Below, one piece after another: positions 1-4,930 of a DNA stretch of 64,000 nucleotides. Every line of letters starts with the position of its first letter. Position 1 is the stretch's first letter. A program made the position numbers and the translations under genes. The notes beneath the pieces were generated by a model. That model saw only the letters and a program-made list of their open reading frames with translations, was not told where the DNA came from and made no database searches. The stretch is from Escherichia coli (GTDB taxonomy: Bacteria > Pseudomonadota > Gammaproteobacteria > Enterobacterales > Enterobacteriaceae): NCBI RefSeq assembly GCF_050920415.1, contig NZ_CP169309.1; one strand, given 5' to 3'.

Positions 1-1731
1 AGCCATACTTTGTACCAGCAGGCCGTGGATACGCGCCTGCGGCCAGGCCATTTTTACGCGATCGAAAATAGCATTTGCGGCTTGCTGGACTTCATTGGCT
101 GTACGCAAGTAGAGCATGACGCCCTGAACTTCTGATTTATGTGGAATATCCGGCGAGCGTAATTTTAGTGCCACCGGATAACCAATCTGTTCGGCAATAT
201 GCACAGCCTCGGTGCTGTCAGTGGCAATCCAGGTGGGAAGTGTGTTCATGCCGTACGCTTGCAGGATAGGCTGAACTTCATGGGTATCGAGCGACGTTGC
301 CCCTTCGACAATGGCCTGTTGCAACAGAAGATGCGCTTCTGCGGTATTAGAGGTCAGATTGCTGGGCAACGCCGGCGTTTCGCGTAGTTGCTTCTGATTA
401 CGCCGGTACTCCACCATATGCATAAAAGCGGTGATGGTTCCTTCCGGGGTGCGGTAGGTCGGCAGCCCGGCTTCGCTGAATAAACGTCGTGCCTCTTGCG
501 AGGAGTGCTCGCCGCACCAGTTCGTCAGCAGAGAAACATACTTGCTGCGGGGATGATGCTTTACCGCTTCAATTAATGCATGTGCGCTTTCTGTTGCGGG
601 AGCAGCGGCGCTGGGCGAATGAATAACCATCAGCGCATCAAAATCCTGACTGTGGAGCAGAATATCCAGCGTTTTAATATAATGCTCACTACTGGCGTCA
701 TCACGAAGATCGAGCGGGTTAGAGATTGCCACATGTTCTGGCAGTGCATCGCGCAATTTCTGGCAGGTTTCTTCACTGAGCGTAGCCAGCTTGCCATTGC
801 GTGACCATAAGGCATCCAGCGCCAGTGCGGCAGGTGCTGCACCGTTGCTGATAATCATCAGCCGCTCTCCACGTAGCGGGCGCATATGGCTAAGGGTTTC
901 GACTGCCGAAAACAGCTCGTGGGTATCCTGTACTCGCAACAAACCGGCGCGCTGAATAGCTGCATCCCAAGCAGGATCCATTCCTGCCGTGGTGTTCAGT
1001 AGTCGTTGCGCCGCCGGGCTACGTCCACTTTTAATCACCAGAATCGGTTTATTACGTGAGGCGCTACGTGCAGCCGAAACAAAACGTCGCGCATCACTTA
1101 ATTGTTCGAGGTAGAGCAGGATTGCACTGGTTTTGCTGTCGCGCGCCAGATAATCGAGCAATTCATCAACGTCGATATCCAGGCTGTCGCCGAGAGCAAT
1201 AAAGTAGGAAAAGCCCATTTCCCGCTGTTGTGCCCAGTCGAGGATGGTATTGGAGACGGCGGCAGACTGCGAAATAAACGCCAGTTTGCCGCGTTTAATC
1301 GGTACAGGCGAAAAGCTGGCATTCAGGCCTTGCCAGGGGGCCAGTAATCCCAGACTGTTTGGCCCCAGCAGACGCATGTTATGGCGCAGGGCGCAGGCGC
1401 GGAGATCTTCGTGTTGCGATACCGGGGCGGAAAGAATAATGCAGGTTTTACAGCCTTTCTCGCCGAGCTCTTCCAGAAGAGCAAGATTGCGGCTGGCATT
1501 GGTACATAAAACCGCAAGATCGGGTGTAAAGGGCAGGCTGGCAATATCCGGCCAGGCCAACACACCCAACACCGCTTTCCAGGCAGGCGTCACCGGGAGT
1601 ACCGGCCCGTTAAATCCCCCCGCCAGCAGGTTACGCATCATCAGATAACCTGCGCGATTGGGTTTCATCGATGCGCCAATTACCGCAATCGATTTTGGTC
1701 GCAGTAATGCTTCCAGTCCTCGCTGACTCAT
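1..1731 (-). CDS. patZ: Protein lysine acetyltransferase PatZ/Pka, N-terminal ~577 codons; 3' end lies beyond window start
   Basis: Reverse-strand translation from ATG at 1731 reads MSQRGLEALLRPKSIAVIGASMKPNRAGYLM, matching PatZ N-terminus; GGGAGA SD upstream; ORF runs off the window edge so it is absent from the ORF track. Confidence 0.85.
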   Translation of the reverse strand, partial: MSQRGLEALLRPKSIAVIGASMKPNRAGYLMMRNLLAGGFNGPVLPVTPAWKAVLGVLAWPDIASLPFTPDLAVLCTNASRNLALLEELGEKGCKTCIILSAPVSQHEDLRACALRHNMRLLGPNSLGLLAPWQGLNASFSPVPIKRGKLAFISQSAAVSNTILDWAQQREMGFSYFIALGDSLDIDVDELLDYLARDSKTSAILLYLEQLSDARRFVSAARSASRNKPILVIKSGRSPAAQRLLNTTAGMDPAWDAAIQRAGLLRVQDTHELFSAVETLSHMRPLRGERLMIISNGAAPAALALDALWSRNGKLATLSEETCQKLRDALPEHVAISNPLDLRDDASSEHYIKTLDILLHSQDFDALMVIHSPSAAAPATESAHALIEAVKHHPRSKYVSLLTNWCGEHSSQEARRLFSEAGLPTYRTPEGTITAFMHMVEYRRNQKQLRETPALPSNLTSNTAEAHLLLQQAIVEGATSLDTHEVQPILQAYGMNTLPTWIATDSTEAVHIAEQIGYPVALKLRSPDIPHKSEVQGVMLYLRTANEVQQAANAIFDRVKMAWPQARIHGLLVQSMA

Positions 1732-2529: not shown

Positions 2530-2949
2530 TTAAAGCGATTCGTTCAGCCAGCTATCGAAAGGTGCTTTTGGTACTGCGCCATTAAGCATGTCGACAACCT
2601 GACCGTTTTTGAAAATCATGATTGTCGGAATGCTACGAATACCAAAGCGGCTGCTTAATTCACGTTCAGCTTCGGTATTCACTTTCACAAAGCGCACTTT
2701 ACCGCTACGCTCTTGCGCAACATCTTCAAAAATTGGTGCGAAATTACGGCAGGGGCCGCACCACGGCGCCCAGAAGTCGATCACCACAGGCAGATCATCT
2801 TTCAGCAATTTATCGAGCGTTTCACCGGTCGCATTAATCACCTCTCCGTCAAACAAGTCGTGACCGCAGCGTCCGCATTTTGCCGCATCTTCGATCCGAT
2901 CGTCGGGAATGCGATTGATGGCCTGACAATGGGTACAAACGGTATTCAT
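2530..2949 (-). CDS. trxC: Thioredoxin 2
   Basis: 139-aa ORF with N-terminal Zn-finger cysteines (CTHC..CGRC) and WAPWCGPCR active site. Confidence 0.95.
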
Positions 2950-3155
2950 AACTAACCTCGGGATGAGTAAGGAGACTTATCGGCAACGACGCCGGTATGT
3001 TTCTAATATGTTACATATTATCGGGGACATTGTTCCAGACAACAATCTGTTTTATTCAATAGGTATGATAGTCGCAGGCTTTGGTACGAAATCATGGCGA
3101 ACCGCGCGCACTTCGGGTAATCTGCGCGCTTCGCGCAGCGCTGGTGGAGAAAAGC

Positions 3156-4193
3156 ATGAACGATGAGATGAAAGGTAAAAGCGGCAAGGTCAAAGTGATG
3201 TATGTCCGCAGTGATGATGATTCTGATAAACGTACCCATAACCCGCGTACCGGGAAAGGGGGCGGGCGTCCAGGAAAATCTCGTGCCGACGGTGGCCGTC
3301 GCCCCGCCCGCGATGACAAACAAAGTCAGCCCCGTGACCGCAAGTGGGAAGAGTCTCCGTGGCGCACGGTTTCCCGCGCGCCGGGTGATGAGACGCCGGA
3401 AAAGGCCGATCACGGTGGCATCAGTGGTAAAAGTTTTATTGATCCGGAAGTGTTGCGTCGTCAGCGTGCGGAAGAAACCCGCGTCTACGGCGAAAACGCC
3501 TGTCAGGCACTGTTCCAGAGCCGCCCCGAAGCGATTGTTCGCGCCTGGTTTATTCAGAGCGTAACGCCACGTTTTAAAGAAGCATTGCGCTGGATGGCGG
3601 CAAACCGCAAAGCGTATCATGTGGTGGATGAAGCGGAACTGACCAAAGCGTCAGGCACGGAACATCACGGCGGCGTTTGCTTCCTGATCAAAAAGCGTAA
3701 CGGTACAACCGTGCAGCAGTGGGTAAGTCAGGCAGGTGCGCAGGATTGTGTACTGGCACTGGAAAACGAATCTAACCCGCATAACCTGGGTGGCATGATG
3801 CGCAGTTGCGCGCACTTCGGCGTGAAAGGCGTTGTGGTGCAGGATGCGGCGTTGCTGGAATCCGGTGCGGCTATCCGTACCGCAGAAGGCGGTGCAGAGC
3901 ATGTTCAGCCGATTACTGGCGACAACATTGTTAACGTGCTGGATGACTTCCGCCAGGCGGGTTACACCGTAGTGACCACCTCCAGCGAGCAGGGTAAACC
4001 GCTGTTCAAAACCAGTCTGCCAGAGAAAATGGTGCTAGTGCTGGGTCAGGAATATGAAGGGTTACCGGATGCCGCACGCGATCCGAACGATTTGCGCGTG
4101 AAGATTGACGGAACTGGCAATGTTGCCGGGCTGAATATCTCTGTTGCAACCGGCGTTTTGCTTGGCGAATGGTGGCGTCAGAACAAAGCCTGA
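3156..4193 (+). CDS. yfiF: SpoU/TrmH-family RNA 2'-O-methyltransferase YfiF with basic low-complexity N-terminal extension
   Basis: ORF 3081..4193; start at ATG 3156 ([11 protein letters not shown]) preceded by GGTGGAGA; C-terminal SpoU-like domain. Confidence 0.85.
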
Positions 4194-4200
4194 TAAATCA

Positions 4201-4231
4201 GCCGGGTGGCAATTCTGCCATCCGGCGTTTT
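4201..4231. terminator. Hairpin between convergent yfiF and ung (bidirectional terminator)
   Basis: gccgggtggcaattctgccatccggc stem-loop followed by T-run. Confidence 0.6.
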
Positions 4232-4240
4232 CCCTTAAAT

Positions 4241-4930
4241 TTACTCACTCTCTGCCGGTAATACTGGCATCCAGTCAATCGGTTTCTCGCCACGTTGTTC
4301 CAGCCACTGATTTGCCAGCACAAAATGATTGCAGCCAAAGAATCCACGATGTGCAGAAAGCGGCGATGGATGCGGCGCTTTCAGTACGTGGTGGCGTTGC
4401 TTATCTATAATCGCCCCTTTCTTTTGCGCATGTGATCCCCACAACAAAAACACCACGCCTTCGCGGTGCTGGTTAATCAGGCTGATGACTTTGTCGGTGA
4501 AGGTCTCCCAACCGAGGCTGGCGTGGGAATGCGCCTGACCTGCGCGAACCGTCAAGACGGTATTGAGCAGCAAAACGCCCTGACGCGCCCAGCTCTCAAG
4601 ATAGCCATGATCAGGGCGGGTAAAGCCGGGAATGGTATTTTCCAACTCTTTATACATATTCAGTAATGACGGAGGAATGGCGATTCCGGGACGAACAGAA
4701 AATGCCAGACCATGCGCTTGCCCGGGGCCATGATAGGGGTCCTGACCGAGGATCACGACTTTGACATCGCCCAACTCGGTAAAGCGAAAGGCGTTAAAGA
4801 CATCTTTTTGTGGTGGATAGATAGTGATGCCGGACTGCCGCTCGCTGGCGACGGTTTGAAGGGTATTAAGGAAATAGGGTTGTTGCTTCTCTTCAGCCAG
4901 CACGTCATGCCAGGTTAATTCGTTAGCCAT
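4241..4930 (-). CDS. ung: Uracil-DNA glycosylase
   Basis: 229-aa [27 protein letters not shown]... with [18 protein letters not shown] motif. Confidence 0.97.

Follow-up and report, generated by a model that had tools for sequence, protein, structure and literature searches.

The closest solved structure to YfiF is that of RlmB (YjfH; PDB 1gz0), the 23S rRNA Gm2251 2'-O-methyltransferase, with which it shares an L30e-like domain, a SPOUT domain and the catalytic motifs. RlmB has no N-terminal extension and its substrate is known, unlike that of YfiF. YfiF was described by Tkaczuk et al. 2007 (BMC Bioinformatics 8:73, PMC1829167) as an RlmB paralog found in gammaproteobacteria, with all 2'-O-methyltransferase residues retained, and that report already stated the N-terminal extension explicitly. 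The existence of the tail, which is the clearest distinction between YfiF and its paralog, is thus not new, and the object treated here is the same. The tail was not dissected in that paper; the detail added by the present analysis is its microdomain structure (three microdomains and a repeat-driven spacer), an unusually strong constraint, in which purifying selection exceeds that acting on the catalytic domain, and a confirmed N-terminus.

Several other systems bear comparison with this tail. The mitochondrial proteins MRM1/Pet56 and MRM3/RNMTL1, which are also members of COG0566B/C, possess positively charged N-terminal extensions, and Mrm1p has an essential role that is independent of methylation (PMC1829167). 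MRM-type factors bind large-subunit assembly intermediates (Foldseek matches 7oi6, 9hcd and 6yxy). A tail-only search with YfiF detected no sequence relation to the MRM extensions. These eukaryotic extensions are probably, at least in part, organelle-targeting sequences. [quoted passage not shown] The DEAD-box helicases RhlE1 and RhlE2 likewise carry a charged, disordered appendage on an RNA enzyme, and their basic IDRs raise RNA binding, tune the activity of the core and mediate the interaction with RNase E (PMC11260450). The RhlE IDRs are C-terminal, belong to another enzyme class and have a demonstrated function, whereas that of the YfiF tail is one we infer.

As to YfiF itself, OOPS together with iCLIP revealed that the protein crosslinks in vivo to rRNA, to tRNA, to csrB, arrS and chiX, and to its own mRNA, and, of the new RNA-binding proteins that were tested, YfiF was reported as the one whose deletion impaired growth most (PMC11066096, 2024). 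The rRNA and tRNA binding published in that study is that of the whole YfiF protein, and the tail is not mentioned there. YfiF was also reported to co-purify with ribosomal proteins and rRNA-modification enzymes (PMC3384335). The initial annotation of this locus considered the methylation substrate of YfiF to be unassigned, and none is reported in the searchable literature (PMC11066096, 2024), which leaves YfiF as one of the last E. coli SPOUT methyltransferases without a substrate.

The yfiF coding sequence occupies positions 3156-4193 on the plus strand of the window (the whole 64-kb stretch of E. coli DNA that was analysed), as indicated by the open reading frame, the RefSeq annotation and the NCBIfam equivalog NF008117, and its translation comprises 345 codons and a stop; the elements located below lie on this same strand, with the exception of one antisense ORF. 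The K-12 RefSeq counterpart is b2581, 'putative methyltransferase YfiF', with a CDS of equal length (1,038 nt). The gene order of the window is that of K-12, with patZ-tapT-trxC divergent from yfiF and ung-grcA convergent with it. Most of the 1.4-kb region is contained in 5,424 of 5,426 complete E. coli genomes, in which RefSeq labels the gene 'yfiF: tRNA/rRNA methyltransferase', between trxC and ung. The context is the same in Salmonella, Klebsiella and Cronobacter, and trxC/DTW are kept upstream in Symbiopectobacterium. A scan of positions 2900-4300 yielded no match to a sigma-70 promoter, while a consensus scan located a terminator-like hairpin with an 11-bp stem (8 G-C pairs), followed by a T run, 3' of the yfiF stop at 4201-4226.

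Judged from its sequence, the core of YfiF is an RlmB-like, two-domain SPOUT 2'-O-methyltransferase of predicted activity. Pfam recognises an L30e-like substrate-binding domain (SpoU_sub_bind, PF08032; 55.8 bits against a cutoff of 22.8) at residues 110-181 (3483-3698) and a SPOUT catalytic domain (SpoU_methylase, PF00588; 111.3 bits against 29.7) at residues 199-336 (3750-4163). The AlphaFold2 (AF2) model returned RlmB 1gz0 as its top Foldseek match (E 8e-17), superposing over 240 columns with a TM score of 0.74-0.76 normalised to the target, and the RlmB motifs (the Asn and Arg of motif 1, the Glu of motif 2 and the Asn of motif 3) are matched in the alignment by residues N210, R216, E299 and N327. 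Among 23 orthologs, R216 and N327 never vary and N210 is kept in at least 90%; E299 is invariant in the seven Enterobacterales-type sequences, the Glu motif being absent from the four Orbales-type sequences. SpoU_methylase, the L30e-like domain and the motif residues together place the protein among the SpoU/TrmH-type SPOUT enzymes, in the RlmB-like subfamily (COG0566B). Its closest structural relatives according to Foldseek are dominated by L30e+SpoU 23S rRNA methyltransferases, and include RlmB, RlmR, YsgA, Tsr/NHR, AviRb and the MRM-type factors. The equivalog NF008117 (PRK10864, 'tRNA/rRNA methyltransferase') matches with 666.7 bits against a cutoff of 267; since this match spans residues 1-345 of the protein (profile 1-344), the tail belongs to the family model. 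The RlmB equivalogs TIGR00186 and NF008386 are missed, at 118.2 against 160.15 bits and 91.4 against 366 bits, respectively, and it is because of this shortfall (118 bits against a cutoff of 160) that YfiF is, by sequence, a paralog of RlmB and not RlmB proper.

The alignment of RlmB (1gz0) to YfiF starts only at residue 108, and residues 1-107 (3156-3476) constitute an N-terminal extension absent from the paralog, as supported by this alignment, Pfam, composition and dN/dS. Homology thus gives the extension a length of ~107 residues, and predicted disorder one of 91. A charged extension of ~95 residues (residues 1-95, 3156-3440) before the SpoU core, as originally proposed, is a fair delimitation, with Pfam domains from residue 110; the tail has no Pfam match even at E≤10. 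Residues 1-108 are rich in R (13.9%), G (12.0%), D (11.1%) and K (10.2%), which together make up 47%, and contain 26 K+R and 20 D+E (~43% charged) for a net charge of +6 and a pI of 9.84. The hydrophobic fraction of the tail is 0.18-0.19, versus 0.43 for the core. Among 2,938 local segments of 95 residues, taken from every ORF in the window that encodes 150 aa or more (59 in all), only the YfiF N-terminus combines a charged fraction of at least 0.38 with a hydrophobic fraction of at most 0.22. The charge pattern (FCR 0.42, NCPR +0.07, kappa 0.175 versus 0.162 ± 0.048 in shuffles) is that of a well-mixed polyampholyte with a small positive excess. The term 'basic', applied to the tail at the outset, therefore holds for net charge and pI, but weakly so in view of 20 acidic residues and the low NCPR. 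Direct reading of residues 1-108 found no RGG or RG dipeptide, only GGGR and GGRR, and the tail thus lacks the clustered RGG/RG repeats of an RGG/RG-box RNA-binding region. The sequence entropy of the whole tail falls at the 8th percentile locally, with a minimum of 2.9 bits at about residues 31-60, and no tandem repeat was found in the E. coli tail. The epithet 'low-complexity' applies to these ~30 residues and not to the remainder, with about 60 of 107 residues lying in conserved islands.

The tail is preceded by a GGAG Shine-Dalgarno sequence (3146-3149, read from the sequence), 6 nt 5' of the ATG at 3156, and neither element varies among E. coli, Salmonella, Klebsiella and Cronobacter. In Klebsiella the frame 5' of the start is interrupted by a 1-nt indel, such that the upstream GTG/TTG codons are no longer in frame with yfiF. 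The SILProNAQ N-terminomics table records an N-terminal peptide of YfiF (P0AGJ5) at position 1 (PMC8902505), and a downstream start is excluded by this observation. Upstream and downstream alternative starts were both ruled out by the leader alignment, the Klebsiella indel and the observed peptide. Across residues 1-107, the four genera differ by 35-48 synonymous versus 18-38 non-synonymous changes, mostly synonymous from codon 1. The chance that the start is mis-annotated, with the basic segment outside the protein, or that the region instead encodes a 200-aa antisense ORF (3018-3620), is in our estimation next to nil. Such a reading could appeal to the presence of this long ORF and to the few database YfiF entries that begin at M15 (331 aa); these entries are annotation variants, one of them a doubly frameshifted allele, and the ORF was rejected, having neither a family match in Pfam nor an annotation in RefSeq. 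A start downstream of the basic segment, the one circumstance that the initial annotation named as fatal to its proposal, is ruled out by the N-terminomics peptide, by conservation at the level of codons and by the conserved Shine-Dalgarno sequence, and the annotated start is genuine.

In the AF2 monomer, computed with a 23-ortholog alignment, residues 1-91 (3156-3428) have a pLDDT of ~34 (block means 31-37, all below 50) and no secondary structure, in agreement with the disorder that had been presumed for the tail. A helix at residues 97-122 (pLDDT 69-90) runs without a break into helix 1 of the L30e-like domain. When two copies were fused through a (GGGGS)6 linker, both tails had a pLDDT of 24-29, a weak negative in a shallow model (7 sequences, mean pLDDT 58), and neither the monomer nor this low-confidence fused dimer revealed docking or fold-back of the tail on the enzyme. 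The lack of structure at residues 1-91 in two AF2 runs, the low hydrophobicity and the FCR of 0.42 all characterise a disordered region, and it is virtually certain that the YfiF tail is real, translated and disordered.

Regional identities in an alignment across 12 Enterobacteriaceae genera divide the tail into three islands and two variable stretches. Island 1 (residues 8-35, 3177-3260) has an identity of 0.97 over residues 8-22 and 0.91 over residues 23-35; its V-x-V-M/F-Y core extends to Orbales, and the E. coli version, the hydrophobic V-K-V-M-Y-V, has a β-strand-like pattern. Island 2 (residues 66-76, 3351-3383; identity 0.91) contains an 'SPW' motif, and island 3 (residues 85-107, 3408-3476; identity 0.99) adopts the predicted helix from residue 97. 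Only residues 36-65 and 77-84 are variable. The former (3261-3350) form an Arg/Gly/Asp/Lys spacer with an identity of 0.62 in enterics and 0.14 in distant orthologs, and the latter have an identity of 0.69. The corresponding values are 0.97 for the L30e-like domain and 0.78 for the SpoU domain, so that the conservation of the islands, at 91-99%, matches or exceeds that of the catalytic domain, at 78%. Within the islands, Y16 and Q103 are each shared by at least 90% of 23 orthologs, and E107 is invariant in the same alignment; P68 never varies, and 7 of 10 distant orthologs retain W69. All five residues are kept in orthologs from Symbiopectobacterium, Sodalis and Orbales (Zophobihabitans). All large indels fall within the 36-65 spacer, which contains RKRDD repeats in Enterobacter and Klebsiella, the latter as a 15-nt tandem repeat of 2.9 copies. 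The tail thus consists of three strongly constrained microdomains placed around a charged spacer that is driven by repeats, its truly low-complexity part being residues 36-65 only, and its conserved motif islands inside a variable, indel-rich background are those of a SLiM-type IDR.

Pairwise dN/dS was estimated in four comparisons among E. coli, Salmonella, Klebsiella and Cronobacter. For the tail (residues 1-107) it was 0.09-0.13 in the three E. coli comparisons and 0.05 between Salmonella and Klebsiella, with 0.05-0.12 for the core and 0.005-0.014 for the L30e-like domain. Residues 66-107 had values of 0.02-0.04, and the spacer (36-65) values of 0.19-0.26 in the E. coli comparisons and 0.07 between Salmonella and Klebsiella, where dS is saturated. 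A tail that is translated, disordered and mostly made of constrained motifs argues against its treatment as a mere linker.

HMMER, run exhaustively over 1.84 billion cluster representatives (E≤1e-30), produced 356 relatives. N-terminal extensions of 60-367 aa are present in 61 of the 127 best complete-core relatives; most are charged, net-positive and poorly hydrophobic, several have long tandem peptide repeats, and some distant relatives carry repeats of the GGxRG/RGP type. On a neighbour-joining tree of the core, long tails cluster (42 runs versus 64.8 ± 5.6 in shuffles), and they are present in almost all members of the YfiF-proximal clade. In the tails of the 61 relatives there are 17 PW dipeptides, versus an expected 5.3 ± 2.2 (3-fold), usually as S/T-P-W followed by basic residues. 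Tail length varies even inside a single 90%-identity cluster, with proteins of 421, 590 and 617 aa. The tail-only search for homologs outside YfiF gave 191 matches, of which every named one was YfiF or a tRNA/rRNA methyltransferase; a few bore no more than the label 'hypothetical' or 'putative methyltransferase'. Matches without a name were short fragments, 49-100% identical to the query.

We lean, with modest confidence, towards the tail acting as a flexible RNA/pre-50S tether that carries docking motifs, this being its likeliest role. The charged spacer would provide low-specificity electrostatic affinity for RNA and serve as a flexible leash, while the microdomains would fold upon binding a specific surface of the target particle, which would most probably be 23S rRNA or a pre-50S intermediate. 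Tethering through the tail could raise the local concentration of the enzyme and position its dimeric catalytic core. Spacer 36-65 evolves quickly, tandem repeats gained and lost altering its length. The tail resembles other IDRs of bacterial RNA enzymes: in architecture it parallels the RNase E noncatalytic region, and in its proposed function the RhlE IDRs. The tether model draws on these analogies, on the selection acting on the tail, on the occurrence of charged tails across the clade, and on the contacts of the whole protein with RNA and ribosomes. That the tail itself binds RNA or ribosomes is plausible but conjectural at this stage, and so is the partner proposed for it; RNA binding could lie wholly in the L30e-like and SPOUT domains. 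A clamp that held RNA purely as a polycation would be expected to exceed a net charge of +6 over 108 residues, 20 of them acidic. Furthermore, the partner of the islands could be a protein and not RNA, the AF2 models containing no folded or docked state of an island. The deletion of residues 2-91, Y16, W69 and the 85-107 helix offer handles for finding the ligands of YfiF.

The tail might instead be a hub for proteins, its microdomains docking RNase E/degradosome-type assemblies, DEAD-box helicases or rRNA-modifying enzymes, or driving partition into RNA-protein condensates, without direct RNA binding. YfiF is enriched with RNase E (the 'BR body' query rne), alongside deaD, rhlB, rluB and srmB (PMC13106914), and PMC11066096 cites Rne, Rnr, RluC and PhoL as physical interactors of YfiF. 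Short conserved motifs in disorder are characteristic of SLiMs that bind proteins, RNase E being an example (PMC4435900), the IDR of RhlE2 binds RNase E (PMC11260450), and the β-strand-like V-K-V-M-Y-V of island 1 would suit such a function. However, RNA or ribosomes may bridge the co-purification, no partner interface is predicted, and a kappa of 0.175, with well-mixed charges, does not particularly favour phase separation. We consider this role unlikely, and it is in any case compatible with RNA tethering and not exclusive of it. Another proposal is that the tail is neutral low-complexity sequence made by repeat expansion and tolerated at the N-terminus. The spread of tail lengths among relatives (60-367 aa), many with obvious tandem repeats, the differences of length within one 90%-identity cluster and the poor conservation of residues 36-65 are what such a process would leave. 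Against this stand a whole-tail dN/dS of about 0.1, islands more conserved than the catalytic domain and the retention of the tail throughout the YfiF-proximal clade; neutrality is tenable for the spacer only, and for the tail as a whole we regard it as highly improbable.

A regulatory role was also weighed, in which the tail would be an autoinhibitory module that masks the RNA-binding surface until it is displaced, or in which yfiF would be autoregulated and its 5' coding sequence partly constrained as RNA. YfiF crosslinks to its own mRNA (PMC11066096), and the ~45 nt of its leader 5' of the ATG hardly vary. This stretch includes a conserved element (3115-3138; four-genus alignment and centroid fold), GGGTAATCT followed by the hairpin CTGCGCG-CTT-CGCGCAG, which is nearly invariant in the four enteric genera and whose hairpin is the sole element of the centroid fold. 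The dS of codons 1-35 (0.30-0.78) lies below that of the core (1.03-1.59) in all four pairwise comparisons, and the acidic runs of the tail (DDDSD, and EE near residues 65-66) could mimic nucleic acid. Yet the low dS was estimated from only 35 codons, the tail does not fold back in the AF2 monomer or fused dimer, and codons 36-107 combine a high dS with a low dN, and hence selection there acts on the protein. We regard a regulatory role as quite improbable.

Beyond the tether model, the ultra-conserved microdomains may be specific docking sites through which YfiF serves as a factor in 50S assembly, in ribosome quality or in association with RNase E, its main role then being structural or chaperone-like and at least in part independent of methylation. 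We hold this to be a doubtful extension, for which the methylation-independent role reported for the mitochondrial relative Mrm1p provides a precedent. The known Nm sites in the rRNA and tRNA of E. coli have each been assigned to some other enzyme. If YfiF were such a factor, this would explain why no Nm site is left unassigned for it despite the slowed growth upon its loss.

Some further observations concern the nucleic acids around and bound by YfiF. A strongly structured leader was considered and rejected, with the 141-nt segment of leader and 5' coding sequence being less stable than its shuffles (z = +1.87) and containing one robust hairpin. Rfam returned, in and around yfiF, only a sub-threshold chance match (Ms_IGR-2, 19 bits versus 45). 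The (G)GTAATCT motif of the leader is kept in Symbiopectobacterium, Sodalis and one further relative. With an RNA as abundant as rRNA, an iCLIP signal can be non-specific, a point against the tether model. The top rRNA motif reported for YfiF by this method is AACCTTTACW (PMC11066096), which maps just once in the K-12 rrnG operon, within domain V of the 23S rRNA (nt 2070-2079).

The leader immediately upstream of yfiF (window 3115-3155, plus strand) is nearly invariant across four enteric genera: the ~45 nt preceding the ATG show almost no change among E. coli, Salmonella, Klebsiella and Cronobacter. Within this leader, GGGTAATCT precedes a perfectly paired hairpin at 3122-3138 (plus strand; CTGCGCG-CTT-CGCGCAG), which lies directly 5' of the Shine-Dalgarno sequence, and the (G)GTAATCT leader motif is kept in Symbiopectobacterium, Sodalis and one further relative. 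The leader gave no family match in Rfam. Because the yfiF mRNA itself has been reported among the crosslinking targets of YfiF (PMC11066096), the conserved leader may serve as an autoregulatory site or a promoter element. The first 35 codons of the gene (3156-3260, plus strand) exhibit low dS, with values of 0.30-0.78 that fall below those of the core (1.03-1.59) in all four pairwise comparisons, albeit in a small sample of 35 codons, and this hints that the start of the coding sequence is constrained at the RNA level.

The top rRNA motif in the YfiF iCLIP data is AACCTTTACW (PMC11066096). This motif has a single site in the K-12 rrnG operon (positions 1607-1616, minus strand, of the K-12 locus carrying rrlG), corresponding to nt 2070-2079 in domain V of the 23S rRNA. 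The site lies directly 3' of the known m7G2069, and the motif itself is not known to contain a modification.

The conserved tail motifs V-F-Y and SPW are present in four Orbales-type orthologs (P0156, P0166, P0173 and P0230) in the YfiF ortholog alignment. In RlmB, the catalytic Glu sits in the conserved 'LGxExxG' motif 2, whereas these four proteins carry 'FQQ---' in its place (alignment columns 420-440). The replacement of motif 2 together with the kept tail motifs suggests, on sequence grounds, that catalysis may be changed or lost in these Orbales-type orthologs while the tail is retained.

Among other relatives, three RlmB/YfiF-like representatives (P0214, P0217 and P0241) possess an N-terminal DUF559 domain (Pfam, 90-138 bits), a Vsr-like endonuclease fold that either replaces or precedes a disordered linker; either the fusions are genuine or separate gene calls have been merged. 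Lengths of 421, 590 or 617 aa occur inside one 90%-identity cluster (Corallincola-like; P0162, members P0425-P0438), which indicates that repeat-rich tails grow and shrink over very short evolutionary timescales.

The tail-coding region of yfiF is overlapped by a 200-aa antisense ORF (3018-3620, minus strand) with neither a Pfam match nor a RefSeq annotation, which is probably a by-product of GC-rich Arg/Gly/Asp codons on the sense strand. The deposited E. coli YfiF P0381 (331 aa) has its annotated start at M15, and its residues ~36 to ~94 are in the +1 frame (GVGVQENLV...), shared with the window ORF 3202-3564, before the normal frame resumes; judged from its sequence, this entry carries a double frameshift or a sequencing error limited to the tail. 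Finally, the YfiF of the window strain has E66 ('WEESPW', 3351-3353, plus strand) and E289 ('LPEKM', about 4020-4022, plus strand), where the other E. coli YfiF sequences retrieved, several large clusters among them, have D66 ('WEDSPW') and A289 ('LPAKM'), both being minor allelic differences.
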